From Isurus oxyrinchus (lineage: Eukaryota): DNA of 64,000 nt. Below, piece by piece: positions 901 to 54,443 of the stretch. Made by a program: the position numbers and the translations under genes. Positions within the stretch are counted from its first letter, which is position 1. Each line of letters starts with the position of its first letter. The DNA lies in the NCBI GenBank assembly GCA_026770705.1, contig JANJGN010000034.1, positions 13,082,001 to 13,146,000 of the forward strand. The letters run 5' to 3'. The notes beneath the pieces are model-generated. The model was not told the origin of the DNA, ran no database searches, and saw nothing but the letters and a program-made list of their open reading frames with translations.

Positions 901-3140
901 ACTAAAAGCAAAATACTGCGGGTGCTGGAAATCTGAAACAAAAACAAAAATACCTGGAAAAACTCAACAGGTCTGACAGCATCTGTGGAGAGGGATACAG
1001 TTGACATTTCGAGTCTGTATGACTCTTCAAAAGAACTGAGCAAATTGAGAAATGAGGTGAAATATAAGCTGGTAGAGGGGCGTGGGACAGGTAGAGCTAG
1101 ATAGGGGGCCAGTGTTAGGTAGAGGCCGAGAAGAGATTGCCAAAGATGTCATAGACAAAAGGAGTGTTGACGGTGGCGATATTACATAAGGAATGTGCTA
1201 ATGGGGACATTAAGGGTAGCAAGCAGGACAAGCTAGTGGCAGATGGTCCTAACGGGGGTGGGGTGGAGGGAATGGACTGAAATGGGCTAAAAGGTGGAGA
1301 TAAAACAATAGATCAAAATAAATTTTGAAATAGGTGGGAAAAGAAAAATATATTTTGTTAAAAATGATAAATTATTGGAAAAAGGGGGATCAGACAGGGG
1401 GTGGGGATAGAGGAGAGAGATCATGGCCTAAAACTGTTGAACTCAATATTAAGTCCAGAAGGCTGTAAAGTGCCGAGTTGGAAGATGAGGTGTTGTTCCT
1501 CCAGTTTGCGTTGGGCTTCACTGGAACATTGCAGCAGGCCAAGGACAGACATGTGGGCGTGAGAGCAGGGTGGGGTGTTGAAATGGCAAGTGACAGGGAG
1601 GTCTGGGTCATGCTTGCAGACGGACCAAAAGTGTTCTGCAAAGCGGTCACCCAGTCTGCGTTTGGTCTCTCCAATGTAGAGGAGACCGCATTGGGAGCAA
1701 CGAATGCAGTAGACCAAATTGAGGGAAGTGCAAGTGAAATGCTGCTTCACTTGAAAGGAGTGTTTGGGCCCTTGGACGTTGAGGAGGGAGGAAGTAAAGG
1801 GGCAGGTGTTGCATCTTCTGCGGTTGCATGGGAAGGTGCTGTGGGAGGGGGTTGAGGTGTAGGGCATGATGGAGAGTGGACCAGGGTGTCCCGGAGGCAA
1901 CAATCCCTGCAGAAAGCTGCCAGGTGGGGGGAGGGGGGTGTGAAGGGAAGATGTGTTTGGTGGTGGCATCATGCTGGAGTTGGCGGAAATGGCGGAGGAT
2001 GATCCTTTTAATGCGGAGGCTGGTGGGGTGATAAGTGAGGACAAGGGGGACCCTATCATGGTTCTGGGAGGGAGAGGAAGGTGTGAGGGCAGAGGTGTGG
2101 GAGATGGGCGGGACACGGTTGAGGGCCCTGTCAACCACCGTGGGTGGAAACCTCAGTTAAGGAAGAAGGAGGACATGTCAGAGGAACTGTTTTTGAAGGT
2201 AGCATCATCAGAACAGATGCGACGGAGGTGAAGGAACTGAGAGAATGGGATGGAGTCCTTACAGGAAGCGGGCTGTGAGGAGCTGTAGTCGAGGTAGCTG
2301 TGGGAGTAGGGAGGCTTGTAATGGATATTGGTGGACAGTCTATCACCAGAGATTGAGGCAGAGAGGTCAAGGAAGGGAAGGGAAGTGTCAGAGATGGACC
2401 ATGTGAAAATGATGGAGCGGTGGAAACTGGAAGCAAAATTAATAATTTTTTCCAGATCCAGATGAAAACATGAAGTGGCACTGAAGTAATCATCGATGTA
2501 CCGGAGAAAGAGTTGTGGGAGGGGGCCGGAGTAGGACTGGAACAAGGAATGTTCCACATACCCCATAAAGAGACAGGCATAGCTGGGGTCCATGCAGGTG
2601 TCCATAGCCACACCTTTTATTTGGAGGAAGTGAGAGGAGTAGAAGGAGAAATTGTTCAGTGTGAGAACAAGTTCAGCCAAACGGAGGAGAGTAGTGGTGG
2701 ATAGAGATTGTTTGGGCCTCTGTTCCAGGAAGAAGCTAAGGGCCCTCAGACTATCCTGGTGGGGGATGGATGTGTAGAGGGATTGGACGTCCATGGTGAA
2801 GAGGAGGCGGTTGGGGCCAGGGAACTGGAAATTGTTGATATGATGTAGGGTGTCAGAGGAATCACAGATGTAGGTGGGAAGGGACTGGACAAGGGGAGAG
2901 AGAAGGGAGTCAAGGTAGCAAGAAATGAGTTCCGTGGGGCAGGAACAGGCTGACACGATCGGTCTGCCGGGACAGTCCTGTTTGTGGATTTTGAGTAGGA
3001 GATAGAAGCGGGCCGTCGGAGGTTGGGAGACTATGAGGTTGGAAACTGTGGGAGGAAGATCTCCAGAGGAGATGAGGTCAGTGACAGTCCTGGAAACAAT
3101 GGCTTGATGTTCAGTGGTGGGCGTCATGGTCCAGGGGGAG
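901..3140 (-). mobile_element. Penelope-like element, 5'-truncated and disrupted (RT + GIY-YIG)
   Basis: RT motifs MDVQSLYTSIP and RYIDD; endonuclease LVYCIRC..C..LYIGET; frame break near 2140; pLTR tail at about 901-1420. Confidence 0.92.
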
Positions 3141-4180
3141 GCTTAACGTCTTAAACCTGTTTTCATTGCTCGCATTTCCTGGAATAGACCGCTGCCCTGA
3201 AGTTACAGAGGTACTATTCCACACCCAGCATGGCTAAGCAGGAACAAGAGGTGGTTTGGAAGGATTTGCATGTCGTTTGGGGTTAAATTACGAATGCACC
3301 TCCTGTGGCTATCAAGTAGCTGAAGTGGGACTCGAACCCAGAGCTTCTGGGTAGGGACACAACCCACGTTGCCACAAGACTTCGTTTAAACTTCAATGCA
3401 ATCAAAAACGGTCATTCCTGGGTTCCCACGATCGCCAACTCGTTCCTTCATTCCTGCCCGGCGGTAGGGAGTGGAGGAATGTTATTCCTTCGACAGCCCC
3501 TCTTGTCGTGTTTAATTCTTTTAACTGGGAAGATGAAGTGATCAAATACTGCCATTAAATATGAGCTCATTGGCAAGCATTTGTCCCGCTTCCCCCAGAA
3601 GCGAAACCTTGTCTGGTTGTAAGAATACGGCCTGTTTTATGCGGTGTGAAAGATGTGGTTTAAGATATGGTAGTGTATAAAGCGGGGACATAAGCTGTGC
3701 AATAGCGCCTCATGGTGGCTCACGAGTCAATGGCAGCTGTTTGCATTTATTGGACTTGATGCGAGGTTACTGAAAATCTTTGAAGGTAGGTTTATTCAGA
3801 TATCATCGTTTCTACACCCACAAAATGAAACTGGCCGATGTGGAATAGAACAACCCCAACGTCAGCTGAGATACAGGACAAGTGTCCAAGCTGGGCTGGT
3901 GCAAAACATGCTTTGATTTTCAATGCGGTGGGGGGGGAAGACGACTTTCAGGTGAAATTCTTCTTTCGGGCGGTGGCGAGTTCCATTGGAAACAATATTC
4001 GGTAAGTTGCCGACCGCTGCAGCTTCACCAGCGCCTGTTTTAGACTTCCGACCACTCTCTCCCGCCTTTAGCAATGCTCTGCTCTAATTATTTTATTTAG
4101 CGAGTGGAAATCCAACGCCCCCCACCCCCACCCCACCAGCACCACTCCCCGCGAAGCCAAACAGTCGCCTGCTCATTTTA

Positions 4181-4870: not shown

Positions 4871-6005
4871 GTCTGCTGAGTTTAAGGTTATTAGTTCGCC
4901 ATTTCGTTCTGTAGAGGGGCACACATCAGTAATGTGCAGCACTGCCTGTGCCTCTCCACAAGTGTAGAAAGGGTTTGCTTGGGGCAGAGGTGCAAGGGGG
5001 TAAAGGTCACTGTCTAAGACCTTTCAGCCGTGGTACACTGAGGGGCTGTAAAATTTGTAGAAACCCTCCGGCTATGTGCCTGACATTGAATGCATTTCGC
5101 TGATACAAGAGCATCGGAATTGCATTGAGGCACCTCAGGCAGTGAAATTGCAGTGTGAAGACGAGTCGAATCCTATCGCACTTTCTGTGATTTTTCAATT
5201 TGAAATGTTTTTGCTCTCAGGCTGCATGGAATGTATATTGTAAATACCAAGGGAACTGCAATTGTGTACTGAAGAATCGTGCTTTGGACACCATTAAGTA
5301 GGCTTCATAGTCTTGGGTATATTAACAGCAAGTCTTTATTAACATAACTATGTACATCTGTAAGGTAGAGGGTGCAGGTCTGGGGTTGACTCCATCCCAG
5401 GTTCGTACACACCTCTGTCCATCTCCAGGCGGACCCTAGCTCTGGGTCATGTGCATTCTTACATCACTGCATGGATGGCACTATACTGAGTCCCACGTTG
5501 CGACTCAATATGCGACTACATATTGAGAGTGAAATACAATGCATGGAGACATGCTGGACTTTATGCCACTTTCTGTAACTTTCAACTTGAAAGGTTTCGG
5601 AATGAAATTTTACAAAAGTTATGAGTAAAGTGCATTCTAGGGACAAAAAGGGGGTTTGTACTGAGGGCCCCAGCGGTGGAGGTTGGCTGCATTGGGATGC
5701 TGGAACTCTCCTGGACCTGTCTGGCAAGAGCCACAATGGCCGTAGCAGTTCAAAACTGGTCGTTCCACAGATGGGGTTTGTTACAAGGAACTTGTTAGTG
5801 GCTTCCCGTGTTCCCCATTCCTCGGCTAAATGATGGGTGCTGGTGGATCTTGCTCAGGAAGGGTGCTCCGAATGTTGCCCATCCACATGGGAGGGCAGGC
5901 AACACTAATGCCTATATTATCGTGACATTATAACCCCACAACGAGTGCTGCTGGATGCGCCGATATCACTGCAGCAAGCAGGAGGCACACGAATCCGAGC
6001 GTCTA

Positions 6006-6011
6006 TTTATT
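6006..6011 (-). terminator. Candidate polyadenylation signal of gene A
   Basis: AATAAA on the minus strand about 350 nt after the stop codon. Confidence 0.45.
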
Positions 6012-6361
6012 GAGAGAATATTAACCCAGAAGTCGGGGGGAGTAGGGGTTTGGGGGTTGGGGGGGGTGTGATTTTCTAGTCCAGGCGCTCATTCCTGAGA
6101 CTATCGCATTGCAAGGTGACAGCAGGCGGAGAATCGGAAGGGAATCAGGCCGATTCCCGCTTCTCGCCTGATTTTCCTTGGGCGATCCAACAGCCAGACA
6201 GAGACACAGGAGCAGGAACGCACAAGGCAAGTGGGTTTCGGATTAACCACGCACTGAAGCATTAACATGGCAAAAAAAAAAAAATTCTCCTTTGAGCTTA
6301 CTGCACGGGCATTGCACAGCAATGGTTTCCGGTATATTCCGTGTGAGGCAGTAAACCACAA

Positions 6362-6478
6362 TTAACTTTGCATGTACTTGACATCGGCATACACAGTCGG
6401 TTCCTCCTTCTCTCCGTGTGCAGCAGTGTGCGCCAGTACGTTAAGATCGAGAGCGGCATAAACGATCCCTTGTTCGTC
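6362..6478 (-). CDS. Gene A terminal exon with ITIM (IVYAAL) and ITSM (TVYADV)
   Basis: NAGNAG acceptor ctctag|cag|; DEQGIVYAALDLNVLAHTAAHGEKEEPTVYADVKYMQS*. Confidence 0.85.
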   Translation of the reverse strand, partial: DEQGIVYAALDLNVLAHTAAHGEKEEPTVYADVKYMQS

Positions 6479-9400
6479 CTGCTAGAGTGTGCAGAAATAC
6501 AAGCAGAGTTTCAAACTCACATTTCATCCCAGTAAGGATCACAGTCTATAACTTACAACCACTTGTAATAACAACAGCAGAAGTTGTCAGAAATGCATGG
6601 GCAACAACAGCCAGAAAAGGACAAACATCCTGGGGGGGTTACCATTGACCAGAAACTGAACTGGACCAGCCTTATAAATACTGTGGCTACAAGAGCAGGT
6701 CAGTGGCTAGGAATCCTGCGGTGAGTAACTCACCTCCTGACTCCTCAAAGCCTGTCCACCATCTACAAGGCACAAGTCAGGAGTGTGATGGAATACTCCC
6801 CACTTGCCTGGATGTGTGCAGCTCCCACAACACTCAAGAAGCTCGACATCATCCTGGACAAAGCAGCCCCGCTTGATTGGCACCACATCCACAAACATTC
6901 ACTCCTTCCACCACCGACGCACAGTAGCAGCAGTGTGTGTACCATCTACAAGATGCACTGCAGGAGTTCACCGAGGCTCGTTAGACAGCACCTTCCAAAC
7001 CCAGGACCACTACCATCTAGAAGGACAAGAATAGCAAACACATGGGAACACCACCTTCTGGAAATCCCCCTCCAAGCCACTCACTATCCTGATTTGGAAA
7101 TATATGGGCCGCTCCTTCACTGTCGCTCTGTCAAAACCCTGGAACTCCCTCCCTAACACGGACTGCTGTGGTTCAAGAAGGCAGCTCACCACCACCTTCT
7201 CAAGGGGGAATTAGGGATGGGCAATAAATGCTGGTCCAGCCAGCGAAGCCCACATCCCGTGAATGAATGAAAAAATAAGCGTTAGAAATTTACCCTGGCT
7301 TGAGTTCAAAATGCATGGAATCGAATGGTGCATCTGTTTCTTTTCACTGGCCTGTGTAATGCAGACATCACTGCTGAGGCCAGCCTTTATTATCCCCTCC
7401 CATTGCCCCTGCAAAGGTGGTGGCAAGCTGCTTTCCTGAATCACCGCAGTCCACGTGATGTCGGTAAACCCGCTGTGCCTTTTCCTCAGCTGGTCATGTT
7501 TTGGTGCAGCTCAGTGGCTTGGGAGGACAATTCAGAGGGTTGTTAAGGGTCACCCATGGTGCTGTGGGTCTGCAGTCAGGCTCAGGCCATACCAGAGAGG
7601 AGGGGAAGATCACCTTCCCCAAAGGACGTTGGCGAACAAGTTGGGGGTTTAGGACAATGAGGTGGCTGCACATGGCAGTTTGTCGGTCCACAGCCTGAAA
7701 ATGGGTTATCTTTCCCCTATATTAGCACGTCGCTATTTAACAGGCACTCAGTGGAGTTGACTAGAGTGGGATGTGAGCACTTCACCTTCAGGCGCAAGGC
7801 TCATGAATAAGATCAGCATTTTATTTGAGAGTTTGAAACTCATCCTGCAGCTTTGATAGGATTTGAACACATAGCTCTGGATTTCTGCATTACTAGCCCA
7901 GGAACATAACACTATGCTACCATCCCCCTATTGCAATGGGAAACAACGTTAATTTTCATATCATAACCAAACAATTCCCCTTAGTACAAGTTTTAAATAA
8001 TATGATAAAACATTTTTCATAGCTTGTAACTTTAAAAATCAAGTTCTAACCCCACAAGGTGCATCTGAGGGATTTTATTCCATTAACAGGGTATATTTAC
8101 ACTTAGGCCCATGAGTCTAAAGCATCACAGAGGGGACTCTGTCTCAGCTGATGAAAAGACTGTGACTACTGGAGTTCCTTCTACTGAAATTGGGCTAAAG
8201 AAAATCCCACAAATTCCTCATCACAAGTTAGAACAAACACTGCATTTAACATACCCGAGTTAGTGCAAACGCTGCATTTAACATACCTGAGTTAGTGCAA
8301 ACACTGCATTTAACATACCAGAGTTAGTGCAAACACTGCATTTAACATACCCGTGTTAGTGCAAACACTGCATTTAACATACCAGAGTTAGTGCAAACAC
8401 TGCATTTAACATACTGAGTTAGTGCAAACACTGCATTTAACATATCCGAGTTAAAGCAAACACTGCATTTAACATACCCGAGTTACTGCATTTAACATAC
8501 CCGAGTTACTGCATTTAACATACCCGAGTTACTGCATTTAACATGCCCGAGTTACTGCATTTAACATGCCCGAGTTACTGCATTTAACATACCCGAGTTA
8601 CTGCATTTAACATGCCCGAGTTACTGCATTTAACATGCCCGAGTTACTGCATTTAACATACCCGAGTTAGTGCAAACACTGCATTTAACATGCCCGAGTT
8701 AGTGCAAACACTGCATTTAACATGCTTGAGTTAGTGCAAACACTGCATTTAACATGCCCGAGTTAGTGCAAACACTGCATTTAACATGCCCGAGTTAGTG
8801 CAAACACTGCATTTAACATGCCCGAGTTAGTGCAAACACTGCATTTAACATGCCCGAGTTAGTGCAAACACTGCATTTAACATGCCCGAGTTAGTGCAAA
8901 CACTGCATTTAACATGCCCAAGTTAGTGCAAACACTGCATTTAACATGCCCGAGTTAGTGCAAACACTGCATTTAACATGCCCGAGTTAGTGCAAACAAA
9001 TGCATTTAACATGCCCGAGTTAGTGCAAACACTGCATTTAACATACCTGTGTTAATGCAAACACTGCATTTAACATACCCGAGTTAGTGCAAACACTGCA
9101 TTTAACATACCCGAGTTAGTGCAAACACTGCATTTAACATACCCGAGTTAGTGCAAACACTGCATTTAACATACCCGAGTTACTGCATTTAACATACCCG
9201 AGCTACTGCAAACACTGCATTTAACATACCCGTGTTAATGCAAATACTGCATTTAACATGCCTGAGTTAATGCAAACACTGCATTTAACATGCCCGAGTT
9301 AGTGCAAACACTGCATTTAACATACCCGAGTTAATGCAAACACTGCATTTAACATGCCCGAGTTAATGCAAACACTGCATTTAACATGCCCGAGTTAGTG

Positions 9401-12400
9401 CAAACACTGCATTTAACATGCCCGAGTTAATGCAAACACTGCATTTAACATGCCCGAGTCAATGCAAACACTGCATTTAACATGCCCGAGTTAATGCAAA
9501 CACTGCATTTAACATGCCCGAGTTAATGCAAACACTGCATTTAACATGCCCGAGTTACTGCATTTAACATACCCGAGTTAGAGCAAACACTGCATTTAAC
9601 ATACACAAATTAATTCAAATACATACCTGAGTTTGGGAGGTGTTGACACATCTTTCTATGCAATTGGAAGAAAAGTATAATTTAAAGTGATTAATCTAAA
9701 CTTTACCAAACTATATAGTCAAAATGTTCACATTTCATATGGTTGTACTTTCTGTGGGCTCTCTCTTTTACCTATTTCCTCTTTTGCTAAATGAAGTTCA
9801 CTTAAGAACCCTCCCTCTCCCAATCTCCCCTCCTCTTTCCATGACAACTGTCCATCAGCAAACCAGTGGCTCGCTCCGGTCTTCCTGATTGGAATTGAGC
9901 ACTTTTCCTTGTTCTGATGAACGGTCAGAGGCCCAAAACGGCAACTCTGTTTCCCTCTCTAGTGACACTGCCTGACCTGCTCGGTATTTCCGGCATTTCC
10001 GGTTGGGGGACGCGATGACATCATGTCATTTGTCACTGGGCTAGCAATCCAGAGTCCCAGGCTAATGCTCTGGAGACACCCGGGTTTGAATCCTCCCACG
10101 GCAGGTGGGAGAAATTTGAATTCAATGAAAACCCGAATTAAAAGTCTGATGATGACTTTATGATTGTCGTTTAAAAAAAAAACCATCTGGTTCACGAATG
10201 CGCTTTAGGGAAGGAAATCTGCTGTCCTTTCCTGGCCTGGTCTACATGTGACTCCAGACCCACAGCAATGTGGTTGACTCTGCAATGCCCTCTGAGCAAG
10301 AGCAATAGGGATAGGCAATAAATTTTGGCCTAGGCAGTGACGCCCATACCCCAGTAATGAATTAAAGAAAAAATAATTATTGCATATGCTAATGAATACC
10401 ATTCATTCCTTGTCAAAATCAATAATGGATGGACTGCGGAGATTCATCACAAAGGGGCATGTAAAATGGGCGGTATTGGATAGTCCGTGCATTGCACTCC
10501 TCACATGGTATGCAACTCCACTGGTTGCAACAGATATCTAAGTGATCAATGCACCTAAGCACGCTTAAAAAAAAATTCCCATTACCTTGAGTTCGTCGCT
10601 TCCTCCAAATTAACGCCACAGTCAACACAATGAGAACAACACCCACCACAGGAGCCACTATTTTGATCATGTATAAAAATTCAGGTTTGCCTACGGAATT
10701 GGATTTGAAAGAAATAAGGACAATGTCATTGAAAGCGGGAATTGGAGCTGACGGGCTATACTCGGTGGTCAGTCATGTACACTGATTGTGGACAGTAATT
10801 ATTGCAGCTCCCCCTCGCACCTCTTCGATTACCAGGTTTGGTGGGGGATGTTGTTTGCATCACCTTCTCAAGGGCAATTAGGGCTGGGAAATCAATGCTG
10901 GCCCAGCCAGCGATGCCCATATCCCATGGAAGAATAAGAAAAAAGCTTTAATGAGGAAACAGTTGAAGGGAAAACTCAAGGGAAATGCAATTACATCCCG
11001 ATTCATGTGCTGATTAACTACTTTTTCAATGGCCCTTAGAATTAGGCCAGGATGATCAACAGGAAATAGCTCATGGTATTCCATTGTCTTCTGTGAGGGA
11101 ATTCATTAAAATCCTTCAGATATGTCCTCAAACCGAACCAAATTCCCTGTACTCACGGAGCCCAAGCAATCCTGTAATTGCAGGCAAATGAGCAGAAAAA
11201 TCTGCCTTTCTAGCCCTATGGAAATGAAAGAGGCTATTTGAAAAGTACCTTCATATATAATTAATATACTTCATCTACAAGGCACAGGTCAGGAGTGTGA
11301 TGGAATACTCTCCACTTGCCTGGATGAGTGCAGCTCCCACAACACTCAAGAAGCTCAACACTATCCAGGACAAAGCAGCCCTGCTTGATTGGCACCCCAT
11401 CCAAAAACATTAACTCCCTCCACCACTGACACACAGTAGCAGCAGTGTGTACCAGCTACAAGATGCACTGCAGCAATTTGCCAAGGATCCTCAGACGGCA
11501 CCTTCCAAACACACCATCTCTACCACCTAGAAGGACAAGGGCAGCAGACACATGGGGACACCACCGCCTGCAAGTTCTGCTCGGAGTCACTCACCATCCT
11601 GTCATGGAAATATATCAGCCATTCCTTCACTGTCTCTGGGTAAAAGTATTGGAACTCTCTCCCTAACAGCGCTGTGGGTGTATCTACACCACAGGGGCTG
11701 CAGCGGCTCAAGAAGGCAGCTCACCACCACCTTCTCAAGGGTGACGAGAGGCGGGAAATAAATGCTGGCCCAGCCAACGATTCCCACAAACCGTGAAAGA
11801 ATTTTTTAAAAATCTTCACATTGGCAACTGGTTTTCAAGAGTTTATAAAGCAACAGGAACTTGACAAGATTCAGGATAAAGATGGACAAATGGTGGGTCC
11901 TGAAAACATGACCGGCATTTGGGGTCTGAGGATCTATTGCTCGTTGAAATAAAGAAGTTGCGTTTTTATAGCACCCTCCATGATTTCCACAGATCTCAAA
12001 GTGAACTCATCATCCCAATCATCTAATTTCATGTGTGGCCGTTTATTAAATTCCAGCACTTACGCTTTTGTTAACAAAATGAAAGGGAATTTGGCCCTTT
12101 CTATCGCTCTATTAACTTGTACCTACCTTTAGGGGAGTCTTTTAAGATTATTTCCAGTTTGCCTTTCCCTGTCCCAATTGAGTTGGCAGCTTCACAGATC
12201 CAGGTCCCATTCATTAAATTGCTCACTTTCTTTATGAACACACTTGCATTTCTGGCCTCCAATCCTTCTGGTAACCTGGGGAGAGCCAACGATGCACATG
12301 TAAGAAATGCCTTGGTGACTAAATCTAGGTGATGAATATTAGCTCTGGCCTCCAAAGAGCAGATACGCTCCACCAGATTGTATCACTGGACGGTATGGGA

Positions 12401-15400
12401 TGTTACTCATGGTGTATAGTAGGGCATGAATGATATACATGAGATAAATGAGTTGAAGACCAATTTTCTGGCTCTAAATAGCAATGGGAAAGTCAAGATT
12501 GGAAGTACCGAGATAGAGGGACAATTTCAAGTACATTGACTTGATGATAAACACCAAAGTTATACCCAAGAATGCAATCCAGGTAGATTAGCTACAGCAA
12601 GAGGCATGAACAGTGATTTAAGTAGCCCCTGTAAATCCAAAAGCATCAGCATATAGCTGGAAAAGAAAATATCTGGTACGGTCAACAGCGTAGAGTGTTG
12701 CATCCATTGTATGTGAGATTTGGACTCTGTGGAAAGAGGATAAGAGGGGGATTAGGGATTTTGAAATGTGGGTTTGGCGGAGGATGCTCAGAATCAGCTG
12801 GATGGACAGGAAGGTCAAAGGGTGGCTTAGGTCAAGAGCAGAAGTTCAGGAATCAAAAGGGTTGCCAAGTACAGGCGGAGACAGAATGATGAGCAAGTAC
12901 AGAGATCGGAAACAAAGACGTGTCCTCAACTGAAGGAGGAATTGAAGGTAAAAAGAGAAGAGGAAGATGAAGAACTGAATGGGTGGATAGCACTGAGATG
13001 TGGATGGTGGAGGATTGAAGAAAACCAGTGAAGAAACTAGACAATGTCAGATAGCCCACTCAGGAGATGGTGATAACAAACGACTTATCATGGGCGACCA
13101 ATCCTATATTTTGACATTTCCCAAAGTCGCCCATAATGTAAATAATCTGAAAGATTTCTGGTACAGAACATCATACAACAGTACCACTCATCGCTGTTTG
13201 TTGAAGTCCTCCTGCATTTGGGGCCTTTCCCCAGGGCTGGGTTTATCAGCTCTTTTCCACCTGGGCTGCTTGGCCCATTCTACACACACTCCTGTATTGT
13301 GGTCAATATTTACCCCCATATTAAAGCCATTCAATCCCATCGCCCCCCCACTACCCCCATCATCTCATTCATAAATATTGCCTACATGATGATCTTACAC
13401 ACACTACATTTTCCCCTTCTCCATCTCTGCTAGCTTGGCAAGCAGAGGCAGATTCATTCTTAATGCTGTGTCTGGTCACTCACGATGTTCACTCTACCCA
13501 CCATGTCCTTAACTGACCCAAGGAAAAAATTACCCCAAGATACAAGTGGTTATTTTGGGTTTCAGTTGTATTTTGTAGGAAACACATTTCAAATGGCTCT
13601 CCAGGTTTTTAACACAATATATTTTTTTCACGAACCCAAATAGCGAGGCATAAAATTGGAAGTCTGTTGGTGTTCATTTGCGATCAGTTGGCCTTTCTGC
13701 ATCTCAAGTATGCAAAACTTATTACCACACTAGTTCAGCAAATGGCCTCTTGCTGCTCAGCCAATCTGTATCTACCGGCCCACGGGTCACAGATTCTCAG
13801 TTTGGCCTTTCTGAAGGCCGCTGAGGTACAGAGACAGTCAGTGAAGGTTCTTGTTAAACACCCTCGCATGACCACAGCTTTTTCACGAATGTTTTCCTTA
13901 AAGCAGAGACATGTAAACAAAACCCGTGCGGAGGGGCCTATTTCCAGTTCAACAACCAGATCACAAACTGTATGAAAGGATCTGAGCGATCCATGATCTA
14001 CACAGTTTTGAAAATATACACAATGCAATTCTTAATAAATGAAGCGCATATTTACCGTGACCAAGTGTAATTTGTTGCTGGGGGATTGGCTTTGGCCTCG
14101 CAATTGAGGGTAACATCCCTAGTGTTTTCACTCCAGTTGCCATCATAACCTGTTATGGTCACTTCTGGTGGATCTACAGAGGAAATTATTGTGATCATGT
14201 GGTCAGTACATCCAACACAGTAGAGAATCCACATTGGTGCATTTGTACAACAGGCCAGATTGGCAGGAAATGGTAGGTCAGTAGCTCTGGCCCGTCCACA
14301 TATTTAAAACAGTCTTTGCCTTTCATGTTAAGTGAATCACATGTCTTGTGTAAAGCAACGATAACCTCAAAGGAAAACCACCACAGTTTAACATGTCGCT
14401 TGAAAGTCGCTGCTTGCTCCGATAACCCATGATTCAGGCCATGAGGTTCATTCTGAACTGCAACTTCCGACTGCATTGATAGAGCAACTTCCACGTTGGA
14501 AAACACCCCACTCAGCCTAACCATCCAAAGTTGAAGTGACCCCGAATTGCTGCAAACAAGTCTTTACGCCCAGAAAATGATACAAGCTCTCTAACCTCCC
14601 GAAGAAAATGATCGCTTTTGAATTATTTAATATGTGCGGCTGGGGTTTACAAATGGGCGGCTTGTGAATCAACCACAACCGGTCACATTGAACCGGCCCA
14701 GCAATGCTGGAATCGCGGATATCCAGAAAATGTCAATTCAGCCAGTGAGGGAAGTTTAACACTTCTCTAGTTAGGGGAGGAGATTGCTGTCTCGTTACTC
14801 AACGGCAGCGCACTTTGAATTGGATTACATTATTTTTGTATTGATGAAAAAAGAGACGTGGAAGCTTTTTGTCTTCCACTCCTCAGGACACTTTACAAGA
14901 ATACTAAAATGAAGGGAAAACAATCTGTGTGTGTTTGTGTGTACAGGAAGCTACATATATTAATACACAGAGCCCAATCAGAGTCCGCTTGCCAACCAAC
15001 CAGCACTCTCTTCACATGCAGTATAAATCGTTGTTTTCTCCTTATATCGGTATTATAGTGAAGTGTCCTGATGAGTGCAAGGTGAAAAGCTTCAACGTGT
15101 CTCTTTTTTCTGCAATACTCAACTTCTGTCCTACCAAGCGACTATTGGAATTAATTGTCTTTGTATACGGAACTTACAGAGGATCAATAATTTTATCGTG
15201 TAAGTATCTGTGCTGTTTGATGCTGGGTGGGAGATAATACACGTCACTGTTTGACCATCATCATCGTCATTAGGTGCCATCTTGTACAGGCTGATAACAG
15301 TTGTTGTCCCGTTGTTGTTTTCAATCAGGGTTGTTGTATAGTTTCCATGGGAACCTGAAATCCACGTGATCTCGGCTGCTGGGTTCCCGTAGGTTGAAGT

Positions 15401-18400
15401 ACAATTTGCCACTGGCACTTCTGAATCAGCAGTCCGTGCGGGAACCGGGATCGCCCTGTTATTGGGAATTGCTTGGGGAGATAAACAAGAAATTAACTCA
15501 ACGTCTGTTTCAAATACGTCAGGAGCTTGCAATTAATCCGGAGCAAAAAAAATACAGAAACCAGATCCTGTCAATATTTACATGTCTCCATCAAATGGCC
15601 CAACTGCATCATGGATGATGTTACGGTTAAAGAGGGGACTGAGGTAAGAAAGTGAGGGACAAAGGCAATGGGGGAATGGAAGGAATGAGCAGGAATATAA
15701 GAAGTAAAGCGATTGGTCTCAGTTCAGTCACGTTATTGCTCTCAGTCAGATCCAACTTGTGCTTATGCCCTACATATGGTGCCAAAGGGATGGGTCTTGG
15801 ATGGGACTGGCACTGGCGACGGGTGTTGTGGGGGCAGCTGGGTGCGGAAGGACCAAAGGAAATGGTCGGAGTACTGGGTTTTGAGAGGGTGGGGTAGGTG
15901 GGTAGAAATGCAGCAACGTGTGAGAAACTGGCTTGGCCCTGGGCCCTGTCCCCATCTTTATGGGGGGAAGGGGGTGTCTTTGCGGCGATGGCAAACAAAA
16001 GGCTGGCGATGTTCCAGATTCAGGACTGAGAAAAATGGCCATGATCGAAACTGTATCATTGGCACTTGATCACCCAATCAGCAAGTGCCACAAGGACTGG
16101 CCTGTGCCGCTGGGAGGCGCAATTTGGGGGGCCTAGTGTGCGGCTGAAGGAAGTGTTGGAACCATGCTGGAGGGTAAGAGGTGGCACTGAAACCCAGGAC
16201 AGTGAAACCAATGCCTGTGACCTGCAGGTCAGACCAGGACTCAGAGGGGTGGATCTATGAATCGACCATGAAAGTGAGTGAAGGGGGATCGATTGTGGAC
16301 GGCGAGGAAGTGGGAGAGAGCCTCAAAGAGCTGCAGTGGGGTGAAGAATACAGGGAGGGGTACTGTATCTGACAGAGTGTGTGAAGTGACGCGGGATCAG
16401 TGCAACATGCTTGCGGTGTAGATCTGCTTCCCAAAGTTCCCCAGCGCTGGGGATGGGGATTTCTCTTGTCTCATGTCTGTACCTGTTAGAGATTAATTGG
16501 TACAGATTGATTGCTGACAGTCGTCAATGGCTCTGATATATTTGCAGAATGTGGCTATCAATAATGGGAGAAGACGAATATGATAAACTTTACTCGTTTG
16601 TGTCTGACACTCCCAACCTTCCCATAAATAAAAGCTTCACTCGCAACTGCTAAACAAACACTAAATATCTCAGTAATAGCTCTATGATAAAATAATGAAT
16701 CGGAGCTAGAATGTGACTAGGTTAAAGTGTTAGAATTACACAACAGTTTTGATGATAATTGCAGGGGTATTAAGTTTACACCCGGATGGACAACCCAAAA
16801 TTCAGCCCCTCCCCCTCTCTGCATGAACATCACATTAACCCACAGATGAATCTTCACGTGAACAATGCTCCATGTAGAATACACACCTAAAATCGTTAGA
16901 TTCATTAATTTCTCAACTATTCCCTGAGGGAATAGCGTGTACATGCACGTATACATTCCCTGATCCTCCATCTCCAGAGCCTTCAATAGAATTGATCCGT
17001 CCAGTAGTGAATGGTTTCTGAAAACGACCCGACTGGAGTAGTTTTCATCTCTGAATGTTATCCCGAATTTAGGATTATACACTACGAAGGCTTTATCCTC
17101 AGTGCTTTTTTCCCATTGGAGCTGTGTCAAATTTGAGTTGTTTAGTGATATCCGGCATGGAAGCAGTACCTCAGTCCCAACAAGAGCGGTAAGGGTCACA
17201 GCTGTAACGTGGTTACTGGTTGTAGCTGCAGGAACAACAATAATTGGCGGAGTTAGGAAACACATTAGAAGCTGATTTCTCCTCAATCCGAATCAGAGGC
17301 CCCCAAGGAACATTAAATCCTCAACAGGCATGTGTGAGGAGTAAGAAAGTGCAGCTACACCTGTCCGACAGCCTGCCCACAAGGCTCCGCCCGGGGGTGG
17401 GGGGGAAATCTGGTCCCTGGCGCTCGAGTTAAACGTGCGATATACCGTGGCTCGCCCATTCTCCGCTCGGCCCGATATTCAGCCGCATTGGGCACCAGCA
17501 GTACTGAATGTCAAGCAGAGCAACTGAATAGCGGCGCATGATCGAGGGGCTGAATGGCCTCCTCCCGTTCCGATGTTCCTTTTCATCTGCTAAATAAAGA
17601 ACTCATTTTTCCTTGGGCGATTTCGCTTTCATTAATATTTTTGGCTTTTGCATAAGACTCCTCAGATACTGAAGCCAACCATGTCCAAATGCAGCAAGAC
17701 TTGCGCAATATCCAGACAAGTGGAAAGTAACATTCACGCCACACAAGTGTCAGGCAATGACCATCTCCAACAAGAGAGAATCCAGCCATTTTCCCTTGAT
17801 GTTTAGTGGCATTACCATCACTGAATCCCCCACTGTCAACATCCTGGGTGTTACAATTGACCAGAAACTGTACTGGACTAGCTGGACATAAAGATACTGT
17901 GGCCACAAGAGCAATCCAGAGGCTAAGAATCATGCGATGATTAACTCACCTCCTGACTCCCCAAAGCCTGTCCACCATCTACAAGGCACATGTCAGGAGT
18001 GTGATGGAATATTCCCCACTTTCCTGGATGAGTGCAACTCCCACAACACTCAAGAAGCTTGACACCGTCCAGGACAAAGCTGCCCACTGATTGGCACCAC
18101 ACCCACAAACATTCACTCCCTCCATCATCAACGCACAGTAACAGCAGTGTGTGCCATCTACAAGATGCACAGCAGGAATACATCAAGGCTCCTTAGACAG
18201 CACCTTCTAAACCCACAACCACTTCCACCTAGAAGGACAGATAGATGGGAAGACCACCACCTGGAAATTCCCTTCCCAGCCACACACCATCCTGACTTGG
18301 AAATATATCGGCCGTTCCTTCACTGTCACTGGGTCAAAATCCTGGAGCTCCCCTTCTAACAGCACGGTGGGTGTACCTACACCACATGGACCACAGCGGT

Positions 18401-21400: not shown

Positions 21401-24400
21401 GAGTCCTCATGACCCTTCAACAGAACTAAGTAAAAATAGGAAAGGGGTGAAATATAAGCTGGTTTAAGGGAGGGGGGGTGGGTTTTGTAGGGACAAGCAG
21501 CCAGTGATAGGTGGAGATAACCAAAAGATGTCACAGACAAAAGAACAAAGAGGTGTTGAAGGTGGTGATATTATCTAAAGGAATATGCTAATTTAAGAGT
21601 AGAAGACAGGACAGATAAGGTACAGATAGCTCTAGTGGGGGTGGGGGAATACTGAAAGGTAGAAATAAACAACAGGTGGAAATACATTTAAAAATAATGG
21701 AAATAGGTGGGAAAAGAAAAATCCATATAAATTATTGGAATAAACCCTCCACCCCTGCCTGTCCCTCTGTCCCCACCCCATCTTCCAATCCCAGCCCCGG
21801 CTGTGTATACACCATACCCCCTGATGTTCCCCTCTCCGACGTTGAACATTCAGTGCTCAGCAAAGGACTTAGTTTCATACCCTTACACCCTCATCTCAAT
21901 GAATTTCAGGCTCGGCACGATGCTGAACTCTTCTTCCGCCGTCTTTGTCTCCGGGCTCACTTTTTTGGGCAGGAGTCCTCTCCCCATTCAACGGATCCTT
22001 TTACCTAGCTCCAATATTCTCCCTCCACCTGGACCCCTCCCTCTGGATTCTTATCTTCTATTGATCTTATCATTGAGAACTGTCGGCGTGACATTGGTCA
22101 TCTCAATTTCTCTGCTCCTCTCACCCATTCTAACCTGTCCCTCTCTGAACTTACTGCACTCTGTTCTCTCAGGTCCAACCCTAACATTGTCATCAAACCC
22201 GCTGACAAGGGTGGTGCTGTTGTTGTCTGGCGCACTGACCTCTACCTCGCGGAGGCTGAGCATCAACTCGCAGACACTTCCTCCTACCTCTCCCTGGACC
22301 ATGACCCCACCACTGAACATCAAGCCATTGTTTCCAGAACTGTCACTGACCTCATCTCCTCTGGGGATCTTCCTCCCACAGCTTCCAACCTGATAGTCAC
22401 CCAACCTCGGAAGGCCCGCTTCTATCTCCTACCCAAAATCCACAAACAGAACTGTCCCGGAAGACCGATCGTCTCAGCTTGCTCCTGCCCCACAGAACTC
22501 ATTTCTCGTTATCTTGACTCCCTTCTCTCTCCCCTTGTCCAGTCCCTTCCTATCTACATCCATGATTCCTCTGACACCTCACATCACATCAACAATTTCC
22601 AGTTCCCTGGCCCCAACCGTCTCCTCTTCACCATGGACGTCCAATCCCTCTACACCTCCATCCCCCACCAGGATGGTCTGAGGGCCCTTAGCTTCTTCCT
22701 CAAACAGAGGCCCGAACAATCCCCATCCACCACTACTCTCCTCCGTCTGGCTGAACTTGTTCTCACACTGAACAATTTCTCCTTTAACTCCTCTCACTTC
22801 CTCCAAATAAAAGGTGTGGCTACGGGTACCCGCATGGGCCCCAGCTATGCCTGTCCCTTTATGGGGTATGTGGAACATTCCTTGTTCCAGTCCTACTCTG
22901 GCCCCCTCCCACAACTCTTTCTCCAGTACATCGATGATTACTTTGGGGTGTTGCTTCATGGTCTCGTCTGGGCCTGGAAAAATTTATTAATTTTGCTTCC
23001 AATCTCCACCCCTCCATCATTTTCACATGGTCCATCTCTGACACTTCCCTTCCATTCCTTGACCTCTCTGTCTCAATTTCTGGTGATAGACTGTCCACCA
23101 ATATCCATTACAAACCCACCGACTCCCACAGCTACCTCGACTACAGCTCCTCACACCCCGCTTCCTGTAAGGACTCCATCCCATTCTCTCAGTTCCTTTG
23201 CCTCCGTCGCATCTGCTCCGATGATGCTACCTTCAAAAACAGTTCCTCTGACATGTCCTCCTTCTTTCTTAACCGAGGTTTTCCACCCACGGTGGTTGAC
23301 AGGGCCCTCAACCGTGTCCGGCCCATCTCCCATGTATCCGCCCTCACGCCTTCTCCTCCCTCCCAGAAACATGATAGGGTCCCCCTTGTCCTCACTTATC
23401 ACCCCACCAGCCTCCGCATTCAAAGGATCATCCTCCACCATTTCCGCCAACTCTAGCATGATGCCACCACCAAACACATCTCCCCTTCAACCCCCCTGCA
23501 GCATTCCGTAGGGATCATTCGCTCCGTGACACCCTGGTCCACTCCTCCATCACCCCCTACTCCTCAACCCCCTCCCACGGCACCTCCCATTGCAAACGCA
23601 GAAGATGCAACACCTGCCCCTTCACTTCCTCTCTCCTCACTGTCCAAGGGCCCAAACATTCCTTTCAAGTGAAGCAGTATTTCACTTGCACTTCCCTCAA
23701 CTTAGTCTACTGCATTCGTTGCTCCCAATGTGGTCTCCTCTACACTGGAGAGACCAAACGCAGACTGGGTGACCGCTTTGCAGAACACCTTCGTTCTGTC
23801 CACAAGCATGACCCAGATCTCCCTGTCGCTTGCCATTTTAACACTCCACCCTGCTCTCTTGCCCACATGTCTGTCCTTGGCCTGCTGCATTGTTCCAGTG
23901 AAGCCCAACGCAAACTGGAGGAACAGCACCTCATCTTCCGACTAGGCACTTTACAGCCTTCCGGACTGAATATTGAGTTCAACAACTTTAGATCATGAAC
24001 TCTCTCTCCTCCATCCCCACCCTCCTCCTGTTTCTTCACCCTCCTTTTTGTTTTTTCCAATAATTTATATAGATTTTTCTTTTCCCACCTAATTCCATTA
24101 TTTTTAAATGTATTTTCACCTATTGTTTATTTCTACCTTTTAGTATTCCCCCACCCCCACTAGAGCTATCTGTACCTTATCTGTCCTGTCTTCTACTCTG
24201 AATTAGCACATTCCTTTAGATAATATCACCACCTTCAACACCTCTTTGTTCTTTTGTCTGTGACTGCTTTTGGTTATCTCCACCTATCACTGTCTGCTTG
24301 TCCCAACAATCCCCCCCACCCCCTCTTAAACCAGCTTATATTTCACCCCTCTCCTATTTTTACTTAGTTCTGTTGAAGGGTCATGAGGACTCGAAACGTC

Positions 24401-24618
24401 AACTGTGCTCTTTTCTGCCGATGCTGCCAGACCTGCTGAGTTTTTCCAGGTATTTCTGTTTCTGTTTTTGTTTTGCATTTTACCCTCTTTGGAGCAAGAG
24501 GGAAGCGGGAACGTTTCTTGAAAAATGCATCAAATGCAACATTCATATAGCAAATGTGAACCTTACCAGACAGGAGAAGAGCAATGCACGCAGTAGAAAT
24601 CCACGCCAGCTGAGTCAT
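6362..24618 (-). CDS. Gene A: nectin/PVR-like V-C-C Ig receptor with ITIM+ITSM tail (inhibitory), 8 coding exons, about 400 aa
   Basis: join(complement) 24567-24618, 16887-17225, 15178-15471, 14056-14173, 12127-12275, 10586-10690, 9627-9655, 6362-6478 = 1203 nt. All introns are GT-AG with compatible phases (1,1,1,2,1,1,0) and the frame is open to TAA. Nectin/PVR hallmarks are YPPEVTITGYDGNW and a third Ig domain split by a phase-2 intron. Confidence 0.88.
6605..7275 (+). mobile_element. L2/CR1-clade LINE 3' end with (TGAA)n tail (shark HER1-like)
   Basis: MEYSPLAWM.AAPTTLKKLD; tail ggcaataaatgctgg...cccacatcccgtgaatgaatgaa. Further copies at about 11275-11800, 17658-18500, 19845-20170, 33960-34285, 37100-37752(-), 50780-51005, 63255-63690. 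Confidence 0.82.
8236..9603. repeat. Minisatellite, 32-bp unit gagttagtgcaaacactgcatttaacatRccc with 23-bp deletion variants
   Basis: Direct tandem array of roughly 40-50 units with no spacers. Confidence 0.95.
9627..9655 (-). CDS. Gene A exon 7, 29-bp cytoplasmic exon (ERCVNTSQTQ)
   Basis: Pyrimidine tract + gcatag| acceptor and CAG|gtatgt donor; supplies the required phase 1->0 change. Confidence 0.72.
10025..10370 (+). mobile_element. tRNA-derived SINE (shark HE1-like)
   Basis: B-box-like ggtttgaatcc and a LINE-shared 3' tail; related copies at about 20780-21110(-), 27118-27470, 33545-33915, 35950-36270(-). Confidence 0.75.
10586..10690 (-). CDS. Gene A exon 6, transmembrane (uncharged core)
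   Basis: GKPEFLYMIKIVAPVVGVVLIVLTVALIWRKRRTQ; ccgtag| acceptor, CAAG|gtaatg donor. Confidence 0.88.
12127..12275 (-). CDS. Gene A exon 5, third Ig domain second half
   Basis: LPEGL...NGTWICEAANSIGTGKG; ccccag| acceptor, AAAG|gtaggt donor. Confidence 0.9.
14056..14173 (-). CDS. Gene A exon 4, third Ig domain first half
   Basis: YPPEVTITGYDGNW...LNCEAKANPPATNYTWSR; ctgtag| acceptor, CG|gtaaat phase-2 donor. Confidence 0.92.
14847..15109. mobile_element. About 260-bp TIR element with hammerhead-like cores in both TIRs (copy at 42848-43110)
   Basis: tgtcCTGATGAGtgcaaggtGAAAagctTCaac at 15064-15096 and an inverted copy at 14856-14892. Confidence 0.7.
15178..15471 (-). CDS. Gene A exon 3, second Ig (C-type) domain
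   Basis: ccaag|CA acceptor, T|gtaagt donor; VANCTS.YGNPAAEITW...DGQTVTCIISHP resembles nectin D2. Confidence 0.92.
16887..17225 (-). CDS. Gene A exon 2, IgV domain
   Basis: ctgcag|CT acceptor and TTAG|gtgtgt donor; LPC...W...DQGMYTC IgV motifs; LFPQG in the FG loop. Confidence 0.93.
17658..18500 (+). mobile_element. LINE fragment at the inner end of the left arm
   Basis: Same junction as 37100-37752(-) in the right arm, but more diverged than the arms themselves. Confidence 0.82.
21288..24475 (+). mobile_element. Penelope-like element with an inverted 3' end (pLTR) copy at its 5' side
   Basis: 21742-24475 encodes RT+GIY-YIG with stops and frameshifts; 21288-21741 is the reverse complement of about 24055-24475. 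Confidence 0.92.
24366..24404 (+). ncRNA. Minimal type I hammerhead ribozyme-like motif in the Penelope 3' end
   Basis: agtt-CUGUUGA-a-gggtc/gactc-GAAA-cg-UC-aact; copies at 999-1037(-), 21389-21427(-), 28026-28064(-), 41667-41705(+), 46472-46510(-). Confidence 0.65.
24567..24618 (-). CDS. Gene A exon 1, signal peptide MTQLAWISTACIALLLS
   Basis: ATG, hydrophobic leader, phase-1 donor TCTG|gtaagg; clearly similar to the gene B leader. Confidence 0.8.
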
Positions 24619-27961: not shown

Positions 27962-29611
27962 ACAACAAAAACAGAATTACCTGGAAAAACTCAGCAGGTC
28001 TGGCAGCATCGGCAGAGAAGAAAAGAGTTGACGTTTCGAGTCCTCAAGACCCTTCGACAGAACTTGAGTTCGAGTCCAAGAAAAAGTTGAAATATAAGCT
28101 GGTTTAAGGTGTGTGTATGGGGGGCGGAGAGATAGAGAGAGAGAGAGGTGGTTGTGTGGACAAACAAGCAGTGATAGAAGCAGATCATCAAAAGATGTCA
28201 ACAACAATGCTCCAATAGAACACATAGGTGTTAAAGTTAAAGTTGGTGATATTATCTAAACGAATGTACTAATGAAGAATGGATGGTAGGGCACTCAAGG
28301 TATAGCTCTAGTGGGGGTGGGGAGAGCATAAAAGATTTTAAAATATTTAAAAATAATGGAAATAGGTGGGAAAAGAAAAATCTATATAATTTATTGGAAA
28401 AAAAAAAGAAAGGGGGAAATAGAAATGGGGTGGGGATGGGGGAGGGAGCTCATGACCTAAAGTTGTTGAATTCAATATTCAGTCCGGAAGGCTGTAAGGT
28501 GCCTAGTCGGAAGATGAGGTGTTGTTCCTCCAGTTTGCGTTGGGCTTCACTGGAACAATGCAGCAAGCCAAGGACAGACATGTGGGCAAGAGAGCAGGGT
28601 GGAGTGTTAAAATGGCAAGCGACAGGGAGGTTTGGGTCATTCTTGCGGACAGACCGCAGGTGTTCTGCAAAGCGGTCGCCCAGTTTACGTTTGGTCTCTC
28701 CAATGTAGAGGAGACCACATTGGGAGCAACGAATGCAGTAGACTAAGTTGGGGGAAATGCAAGTGAAATGCTGCTTCACTTGAAAGGAGTGTTTGGGCCC
28801 TTGGACGGTGAGGAGAGAGGAAGTGAAGGGGCAGGTGTTACATCTTTTGCGTGGGCATGGGGTGGTGCCATAGGAGGGGGTTGAGGAGTAGGGGGTGATG
28901 GAGGAGTGGACCAGGGTGTCCCGGAGGGAGCGATCCCTACGGAATGCCGATAAGGGGGGTGAAGGGAAGATGTGTTTGGTGGTGGCATCATGCTGGAGTT
29001 GGCGGAAATGGCAGAGGATGATCCTTTGAATGCGGAGGGTGATGGGGTGATAAGTGAGAACAAGGGGGACCCTATCATGTTTCTGGGAGGGAGGAGAAGG
29101 CGTGAGGGCAGATGCACGGGAGATGGGCCGGACACGGTTGAGGGCTCTGTCAACGACCGTGGGTGGAAAACCTCGGTTAAGGAAGAAGGAGGACATGTCA
29201 GAGGAACCGTTTTTGAAGGTAGCATCATCGGAACAGATGCGACGAAGGCGAAGGAACTGGGAGAATGGGATGGAGTCCTTACAGGAAGCGGGGTGTGAGG
29301 AGTTGTAGTCGAGGTAGCTGTGGGAGTCGGTGGGTTTGTAATGGATATTGGTGGACAGTCTATCACCAGAGATTGAGACAGAGAGGTCAAGGAAGGGAAG
29401 GGAAGTGTCAGAGATGGACCACGTGAAAATGATGGAGGGGTGGAGATTGGAAGCAAAATTAATAAATTTTTCCAAGTTCCGACGAGAGCATGAAGCGGCA
29501 CCGACGTAATCATCAATGTACCGGAGAAAAAGTTGTGGAAGGGGGCCGGAGTAGGACTGCAACAAGGAATGTTCCACATACCCCATAAAAAGACAGGCAT
29601 AGCTGGGGCCC
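27962..29611 (-). mobile_element. Penelope-like element, 5'-truncated, open 387-aa ORF
   Basis: RYIDD plus GIY-YIG; lies between the two leader exons. Confidence 0.93.
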
Positions 29612-31183
29612 ATTTTTGCCTCATTTCCACAATTGCCTCATTTCCGCTCGTCTCGGGTGACAGCCAGTCCTACGCCCATTCTGGATACGATAGTGATCCT
29701 GGCTGCCAGCATTTCCATGCATTCACGGGGCCGAGGGTCGCTTGTCCCTCAGAGGCAGTCTTATAAATAGATTGTGGAACCGGTTAGTCACAGTTGCCCA
29801 ATCTCCTGAGGAGAGGCTCTGGAAATGTGTTAAATTGAGAAAAGCAATTTGCAACTCTGCAAGTCTCCACCTCCCAGCCTCCAGTTCCCCTTCCACGCTG
29901 AATGGTGTGCGTGTTAGGGAAATATTGAACTCAATGCAGTGGTCAGCAAGTTTCAGATCTTAATGTACAGACTTACAGCATTTTATTTTGTATTTTCAGC
30001 TCCCCCACCTCCCAACTTCCACACCCTAAATTTACATGAGGCAAGCTTTTGCAGGCAGTTGGGGCCTCGTTCACTAAAGCTTTATTCCTATGTTCAATGC
30101 TGGTATTGTCACTAAACTAGTAATCCAGATGCCTACATGTAACTTCAGACCCATGAGCAATGTGGTTGGCTCTTAAACGCCCTTTCAGCAAGGTCAATTT
30201 GGGAAGGGCAATAAATGCTGGCCTAGCCAGTGACCCCCGCATCCCCATGTATGAATAAAAAAACAAAATCCAATTGCTACATAAGCGGTGAGTTTCCAGA
30301 CAGGCCTTATCGAGGGGAAGGTTATTGCCCAGTGTGTGATGAGTAAGGGTACATTTAAGCTACTTAAGTGGTTTTTGATTCATTTGCCCCAAGCACACAC
30401 ATATATATTTATATATATACATTAAATATATGAGGGCAATACATAGAGTGGACAGGATAAAATTGTTTCCCTTGGTGGAGGATTCCACAACCAGGGGACA
30501 TAGATTCATGATAAGTGGCAGAAGGCGTAGGGGGGACATGAGGAAGAACTTTTTTACACAGAGAGTAGAGGGTGTCTGGAATACGCTGCCCAAGTTGGTG
30601 GTCAAGGCAGAAACTCTAAACTCTTTTAAAAAGTACTTGGATGTGCACCTTAAGTGCTGTAAGCTGCAGGGCTATGGGCCGGGTGCAGGGAGGTGGGATT
30701 AGAAAGGGTGCCTGGGTGTCCTTGGGCTGGCATGGACATGATGGGCTGAATGGCCTCCTTCTGTGCTGTAACTTTTCTACACTTCCATGGTTCTATTTAT
30801 AATCCTGACTTCTCTATACATAAAAACATGTTAATTTGGTTGAAGGGCTGTTTCAACACAGCGCCCATGCCTAACACGTTCAGCCTGTGTACCAGTTATG
30901 ACATCAATGGCACTGTGCTCACTCCCTTGCTAAATGCGGAAATGTAATTGCAGAGCCTGTTTTCTCTTTGTGTGTAAATAAATATATCGGAAGCGTGGAG
31001 CTGCTCAGCTGGGTGGCCCATCCATTATGCGAGTCATTCTGCTCTTTGAAAATTGCAACGGAAATAAGTAAAAGCAGCTGTCACCCAAGGGGTATTGAGA
31101 CAGCTTGTGTGAGGCACCATCTCCCCAGAGTGTCACCTGCTTTCACCTGCTGGAGAAGCAACGGTGAATGTTTCCACTTCGAA

Positions 31184-31232
31184 ATGGCATTAATGGTTTG
31201 GATGTCGATGGCATATGTTGCACTTCTGTCTG
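31184..31232 (+). CDS. Gene B exon 1, signal peptide MALMVWMSMAYVALLS
   Basis: gaaATGG start context, hydrophobic leader, consensus donor TCTG|gtgagt (phase 1). Confidence 0.8.
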
Positions 31233-54367: not shown

Positions 54368-54443
54368 GGGGTGGGTAGGGGTTGGAAGGGGTGGGTAGGG
54401 GTTGGAAGGGGTGGGTAGGGGTTGGAAGGGGTGGGTAGGTTGG
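54368..54443 (+). repeat. 20-bp G-rich tandem repeat (ggggtgggtaggggttggaa, about 4 copies)
   Basis: Direct repeats with G-runs; G-quadruplex potential. Confidence 0.85.

Follow-up and report, generated by a model that had tools for sequence, protein, structure and literature searches.

Head-to-head nectin-like genes with ITIM/ITSM and ITAM-like tails in Isurus oxyrinchus: a candidate paired-receptor family of sharks

Background

Among mammals and frogs, the CEACAM, Siglec and CD300 families include paired receptors whose ligand-binding domains are kept alike by gene conversion. Within the nectin network of mammals, CD226 on one side and TIGIT and CD96 on the other have ligands in common but are not known to be converted twins, and we know of no three-Ig nectin-like protein with an ITAM of its own. 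Among the closest described systems, gene conversion between inverted genes is reported for the ceacam genes of Xenopus (PMC5112662), and SIGLEC11 and SIGLEC16 lie head-to-head, ~9 kb apart, with a converted ectodomain region (PMC5701461). CD155 carries an ITIM and no afadin motif, and uses SHP-2 for motility (PMC7037299).

Here we describe two adjacent genes, A and B, in a window of the shark Isurus oxyrinchus (the whole analysed stretch of 64,000 nucleotides), which combine near-identical ectodomains with tails of opposite type, the arrangement of a paired receptor. A full-text literature search found no description of these shark genes, which the gene tables of shark-genome papers may list, and the available parts of PMC13262535, PMC10045777 and PMC8390200 do not mention them.

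Results

Structure of gene A

Gene A is a shark V-C2-C2 nectin-like gene, with the following features:

24567 to 24618, minus: signal-peptide exon, resembling the N-termini of database proteins P0001 and P0002
16887 to 17225, minus: V-set Ig exon (Pfam V-set, E 8.6e-13)
15178 to 15471, minus: C2-set Ig exon (Pfam C2-set_2, E 3.7e-17)
14056 to 14173, minus: third Ig domain, first half, with a phase-2 split
12127 to 12275, minus: third Ig domain, second half
10586 to 10690, minus: transmembrane (TM) exon, uncharged (81% to Carcharodon P0183)
9627 to 9655, minus: 29-nt cytoplasmic exon, phase 1 to 0, matched by loose contig ends in 3 of 4 read runs
6362 to 6481, minus: terminal coding exon, phase 0, carrying the ITIM, the ITSM and the stop codon; NAGNAG acceptor at 6481/6478
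6449 to 6466, minus: ITIM IVYAAL, in the same frame as the ITSM
6380 to 6397, minus: ITSM TVYADV, in the same frame as the ITIM
5322 to 6361, minus: 3' UTR of ~1 kb, with contig cover to 5322-5365 in 4 of 4 runs

Each of the two gene models forms a single open frame throughout, with GT-AG junctions. The ectodomain of gene A has the V-C2-C2 composition of classical nectins; its best PDB matches are nectin-1 (top for the V exon), nectin-3, PVR and nectin-2, and the closest database proteins among the matches listed are lamniform models named "nectin-1-like" (76-80% V-domain identity). A 1.4-kb minisatellite (8226-9633) starts at the donor of the 29-nt exon.

The terminal exon and its RNA

The sequence-only reading of this DNA had recognized IVYAAL and TVYADV in the terminal exon, with tyrosines 23 residues apart; both are present at the positions given above, on the minus strand and in a single frame, with that spacing, and they conform to the consensus definitions of the ITIM, (I/L/V/S)xYxx(L/V), and the ITSM, TxYxx(V/I) (PMC2832619). 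The protein ends in KYMQS, followed by TAA at 6362-6364 (minus), and the exon matches its Carcharodon orthologue at 87% (tblastn); a Pfam search of the exon returned no match. Over its six frames the window contains a single strict ITIM-ITSM pair; 200 Markov simulations averaged 0.195, with at least one pair in 17% of them. Shuffles of the exon's own residues yield the pair in 0.023% of 100,000 trials, and a loose version of the pattern has 9 matches in the window, 8 of them inside a microsatellite. With a 17% chance per window the motif pair was rejected as stand-alone evidence, and because the pattern by itself is so weak, the case rests on gene structure, RNA and conservation.

Contigs from 4 of the 9 listed read runs, all from one study and classified as RNA by the tool's guess, were compared with the interval 5100-6620. 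In all four runs the contigs end at 6483, and 6528-6620 is uncovered; in three of them the loose ends match the 29-nt exon (9629-9655), and the three letters beyond it fit the end of either the TM exon or the last Ig exon, not the intron. The last two junctions of gene A are thus present in the contigs of 3 of 4 runs, and, while the RNA status of the runs is a guess, the presence of an exon-exon junction shows that spliced RNA was read. The three letters fit either upstream exon, so that inclusion of the TM exon in these contigs is ambiguous; the ITIM/ITSM frame is nonetheless fixed, because both exons enter in phase 1. The idea that this exon belongs to the gene A message in the ITIM/ITSM frame therefore held up. 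The acceptor is indeed of the NAGNAG type (TAG/CAG/G at 6484-6478), as had been noticed; of the two products predicted from it, the Gln-containing one, from the upstream acceptor with the extra CAG, is used in 4 of 4 runs and is also found in the Carcharodon and Cetorhinus gene models, and the Gln-less form was not seen in the four runs, whose contigs drop rare variants. Contig cover of the 3' UTR has gaps near 6000-6150 and ends at ~5322, just beyond an AATAAA at 5340-5335.

Conservation of the tail

The ITIM-class set comprises 11 proteins, gene A and 10 from 9 other sharks (database gene models, one per gene, isoforms omitted). Both tyrosines are kept in 11/11, a count that is partly circular as the rows were chosen by tail type; the conservation proposed as a check on them is observed. 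The second motif reads TxYxx(V/I), with Thr at -2, in every protein. Nine of the 11 have a strict ITIM as their first motif, the exceptions being Heptranchias and Pristiophorus, with Thr at -2. The tyrosines are 23 residues apart in seven proteins, 24 in one and 26 in three. None of the 11 ends in an afadin-type motif (E/A-x-Y-V, the pattern given in the earlier note), whereas nectins from the same search end in xYV; the missing afadin-binding end, first noticed for KYMQS, is thereby extended to the whole class. A PDZ-like end (TSL), restricted to two catsharks (2/11), was rejected as a general feature.

A third shark/ray paralogue (P0021, P0023-25, P0028, P0030, P0048, P0242-45) has a homologous ITIM/ITSM-like tail that has decayed between conserved flanks: both tyrosines are kept in one of 7 rows, one tyrosine in another and neither in the remaining 5, nor in four further genes, the replacing residues being Phe, His or Asn. 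Because this paralogue has lost both tyrosines in most species, their retention in the class of gene A is selective.

Gene B and its tail

Gene B spans 31184-52587 on the plus strand, head-to-head with gene A, with the two start codons 6.6 kb apart. Its exons are predicted, with support from orthologous database models:

31184 to 31232, plus: signal-peptide exon, resembling the N-termini of P0003 and P0004
37096 to 47797, plus: block homologous to 10692-18299 of gene A, inverted (self-comparison, DNA 93-98% identical)
38185 to 38523, plus: V exon
42486 to 42779, plus: C2 exon
43762 to 43879 and 45660 to 45808, plus: third Ig domain, two exons
48859 to 48969, plus: TM exon, its DNA unrelated to the TM exon of gene A
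50499 to 50542, plus: cytoplasmic exon 1, phase 1 to 0, also with a NAGNAG acceptor
51781 to 51810, plus: cytoplasmic exon 2, first ITAM tyrosine at 51805-51807
51909 to 51952, plus: cytoplasmic exon 3, second ITAM tyrosine at 51936-51938
52584 to 52587, plus: predicted last coding exon, end of an Arg codon and stop, from splice phase and orthologue ends

Signal peptide, TM segment and tail are thus encoded in gene B by separate exons, four of them for the tail. The motif of the tail is YxxL-x7-YxxL, and a phase-0 intron interrupts its first YxxL, a layout noted for CEACAM ITAMs in PMC2832619. The pattern Yxx(L/I)x6-8Yxx(L/I) fits 8 of 9 ITAM-class rows. We call the tail of gene B ITAM-like because the definition in the same source requires an acidic residue, and none is found 1-3 places before the first tyrosine (Asn-Ala-Thr; S. 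torazame has Asp). Gene B lies outside the coordinates of the sequence-only reading, which did not mention it, and it is the best evidence for an immune role.

At 50504-50506 gene B encodes Ser, whereas the corresponding residue is the Tyr of a YxN in 7 of the 8 remaining rows of the ITAM class; this is possibly a lost Grb2-type site. The Arg in the TM segment of gene B was rejected as an adaptor-docking residue, as it is Gly in Carcharodon and Cetorhinus. Related copies of a retroelement are found at 936-3141, 22009-23998, 28450-29637 and 39182-41251, one of them in the V-C2 intron of gene B only, where it interrupts the homologous block; their frames resemble a reverse transcriptase and a GIY-YIG nuclease, and we take the element to be Penelope-like.

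Matching of the two genes

Genes A and B are 90, 99 and 100% identical over their three Ig domains, and 98% identical over 4.5 kb including introns. Identity changes stepwise along the matched tract (82-100%), and the part that is 93-98% identical includes none of the signal-peptide, TM and tail exons. We compared a V-domain tree (29 rows) with a TM+tail tree (26 rows). In the former, ITIM and ITAM copies pair up as sisters within each of the six species that have both V domains, the support being starred in five (Isurus, Cetorhinus, S. torazame, Stegostoma and Pristiophorus) and 95/77 in Carcharodon, and a single V clade of the nine ITAM rows was rejected (p-AU 5.1e-6, a similar tree having already been seen beforehand). 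In the latter, the same 9 ITAM rows fall on one side of a 100/100 branch. V domains of the two types are 88-97% identical within a species, compared with a mean of 59% between ITIM orthologues. One more pair, the seventh, comes from Hemiscyllium, with identities of 97% in C2 and 93% in C3, and both tail types lie on equal-sized contigs in five named species. The ligand-binding domains thus evolve in concert, as is evident from the V and TM+tail trees. The outer parts are probably kept matched in each lineage by gene conversion that has happened again and again, or else by crossing-over of one inverted copy with the other; we infer conversion because an old pair of tails is combined with lineage-matched outer parts, as in Xenopus ceacam and SIGLEC11/16.

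Among the matches listed, an ITAM copy was not found for Heterodontus, Heptranchias or S. canicula, nor an ITIM copy for Chiloscyllium or Mustelus; rays and skates had the third paralogue only, with neither an ITIM nor an ITAM copy, and chimaeras had nothing. Carcharodon (P0004, P0184, P0186) has at least two ITAM-type genes that are V-only (207 aa), as is CEACAM3; compared with the V domain of the ITIM gene, one of theirs is 97% identical, and a second, in which the FG loop has changed, 88%.

Differences on the binding face

Of the 337 bases compared between the V exons of A and B, 13 differ, and these count as 11.5 amino-acid-changing and 1.5 silent; in the remaining Ig exons the counts are 1 and 3, respectively. 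The amino-acid-changing rate of the V exon exceeds that of the flanking introns (p 0.011-0.033) and of the other Ig exons (p 1.6e-4); measured against the few silent sites of the V exon itself, pN over pS is not significant (p 0.31). Nine of the 11 changes fall in the C-C'' and F-G segments (p 0.011), with the face segments and the front and back position sets chosen after the alignment had been seen, and conservation of the back sheet being general to V domains. Two changes align with Asn77 and Glu125 of nectin-1, which are herpesvirus ligand contacts according to PMC3182920, a mapping onto viral contacts that is putative. Between ITIM orthologues the V domain (mean identity 59%) falls only a little behind the second and third Ig domains (64 and 64%), and it is not the fastest domain in the third paralogue (V, C2 and C3 67, 63 and 69%) or in one nectin-2 pair (76, 60 and 70%). 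Taken together, this is suggestive, not proof, of selection between A and B on the C''C'CFG binding face.

Family position and relatives

The V domain of gene A has LTQ, Vx6G and LFP at the sites of what we take to be the PVR/nectin signatures, (V/I)(S/T)Q, Ax6G and T(F/Y)P. As far as sequence can tell, gene A is not a classical nectin, because the afadin end is missing. Shark orthologues are labelled "nectin-1-like" in databases, an uninformative name that hides these genes; the assignment as a nectin-1 orthologue from best matches was rejected, as shark nectin-2 also matches human nectin-1 first. The ectodomain tree, built on a set without nectin-1 and -4, has deep branches too weak to place the family inside the nectins; on this set, PVR and the shark genes do not come together. 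Nectin-2 and genes of this family lie on same-sized contigs in Heptranchias, a hint that the family arose beside nectin-2, in parallel with PVR; the third paralogue shares a contig size with nectin-2 in Pristis. A search of 50% representatives returned mostly generic nectin-type C2 domains.

Several other sequences were encountered. Two models from the teleost Metynnis (P0142, P0214) combine a nectin-2-type ectodomain with ITAM-like tail repeats, and may represent an independent activating nectin or fused models. A hagfish multi-Ig protein (P0040) has a two-tyrosine tail resembling an ITIM followed by an ITSM. Within the window, 55990-56116 (minus) is a frameshifted remnant of another two-tyrosine terminal exon, which matches a tail in the Heptranchias model P0007 (E 2e-4). 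That model is a fusion, and the matching tail, its first, comes from a V-only gene that lies upstream of the gene with the ITIM; the interval 52601-64000 contained neither a V nor a TM exon to go with the remnant. An uninterrupted frame of a rhodopsin-family GPCR (7tm_1, E 2.6e-19) occupies 61507-62601 (minus).

Discussion

The motifs, their conservation and the trees make gene A a likely inhibitory member of a receptor pair, with gene B as the activating-type member; we hold this with good, though not full, confidence, the signalling itself being predicted. A and B would bind a common ligand through the C''C'CFG face. Engagement of the V domain of gene A would lead to phosphorylation of both tail tyrosines by a Src-family kinase, and the phosphorylated tail would recruit SHP-1/2; the ITAM-like tail of gene B would respond to that ligand by recruiting a Syk-family kinase, and would activate the cell. 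We infer the kinase, phosphorylation and SHP-1/2 binding steps from the sequence of the tails. A microbe exploiting A would select for B, as proposed for CEACAM1/CEACAM3. The notion that tandem motifs engage both SH2 domains of the phosphatase in PD-1 agrees with the two-site binding of one tail described in PMC6994217 and is disputed by PMC7078208, which describes an ITSM-only bridge; either mode would work for gene A. The accompanying view that the tail is checkpoint-like and not junctional stands as to the absent afadin end, but an ITIM without an afadin motif is insufficient to establish it, as the CD155 paper (PMC7037299) illustrates.

The strongest alternative, although an unlikely one, retains the inhibitory reading of the exon and differs in the driver alone: A and B could form an endogenous balance system like TIGIT/CD96 and CD226, with a host nectin-family ligand and no microbe. 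The C-strand Gln, the Gly ending C'C'' and the FG-loop Phe-Pro are invariant in 10 ITIM-class V domains, which is consistent with nectin-type binding having been kept; a conserved host ligand, however, would neither require A and B to be re-matched repeatedly nor concentrate amino-acid-changing differences on the binding face.

Less probable by about half is that gene A serves non-immune cells in adhesion and motility, as CD155 does, with SHP-2, recruited by its tyrosines, tuning migration and growth-factor signalling, and that gene B is a by-product. CD155, which has no afadin motif, signals through its ITIM and SHP-2 to focal adhesion kinase (PMC7037299), an isoform without a TM segment is annotated in Carcharodon and Stegostoma (P0001, P0017) as for soluble CD155, and the contigs of Heptranchias would agree with such an origin near nectin-2. 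This leaves unexplained the ITAM twin, present in 9 shark species and matched lineage by lineage, and the ectodomain tree does not group the shark genes with PVR. The two readings are not exclusive, as A could be epithelial and yet be the exploited receptor.

We give still less credence to the two tyrosine motifs being mainly sorting or endocytosis signals, or to the ITSM binding SAP with an activating outcome. YxxL/V also matches the endocytic pattern, Thr at -2 of the second motif is universal in the class, and the ITSM can signal either way through SAP (PMC2832619), but the order of ITIM then ITSM, the spacing of 23-26 (25 in PD-1, according to PMC7078208) and the ITAM twin favour phosphatase recruitment. 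Finally, recent separate duplications in each species, or an assembly artefact, would account for the 98% identity of exons and introns over 4.5 kb, but are scarcely credible, given the stepwise identity, the retroelement present in B only, the V-domain and TM+tail trees that contradict them, and the signal-peptide, TM and tail exons of gene B, which are its own and whose orthologues form a well-supported group across sharks.

Returning to the paired-receptor interpretation, we regard a wider proposition as evenly balanced: that these genes are an undescribed shark paired-receptor family on the nectin fold, whose ITAM decoy has been re-matched in each lineage since before the galeomorph/squalomorph split; that they are among the oldest continuously homogenised pairs known; that they bear the mark of a long arms race with microbes using a nectin-type entry receptor; and that they arose beside nectin-2 as an independent parallel to CD155. 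The shark pair would carry the conversion-matched strategy back to the most ancient lineage of jawed vertebrates and over to a virus-entry fold, and would provide shark immunology with an inhibitory and an activating marker as well as a bait for the ligand.

Comparison with known systems

Nectin-1 to -4 are the best structural matches of gene A, which is without their xYV end. To our knowledge, CD155 has one ITIM, no ITSM and no ITAM twin, unlike gene A. The two share a three-Ig nectin-like ectodomain, an ITIM, the absence of an afadin motif and TM-less isoforms (PMC7037299). PD-1 has an ITIM followed by an ITSM, as does gene A (spacing 25 and 23, respectively), but its ectodomain differs and the analogy is functional only. 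SIGLEC11/16 are head-to-head like A and B, ~9 kb apart compared with 6.6 kb between the start codons here; Siglec-16 activates via an ITAM adaptor, whereas gene B has an ITAM-like motif of its own and its TM Arg is not conserved (PMC5701461).

A further likeness is to CEACAM1/CEACAM3 and the Xenopus ceacam pairs, in which an ITIM/ITSM gene stands opposite an ITAM-like gene, a V-like domain is matched by conversion, changes accumulate on the CC'C''FG face and the YxxL of the ITAM is split by a phase-0 intron as in gene B (PMC5112662 and PMC2832619). The shark genes differ from them in the nectin-type V-C2-C2 scaffold, in having both inhibitory motifs in one exon of gene A, and in the extent of the matched tract, which is ~7.6 kb with three Ig domains and introns in A/B and the N exon only in Xenopus. 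Taken alone, the terminal exon belongs to a widespread motif class and is not unusual within it, and the pair is a known strategy in a new form: V domains that group by species and tails that group by type are the pattern of CEACAM1/3 and SIGLEC11/16, on a nectin scaffold.
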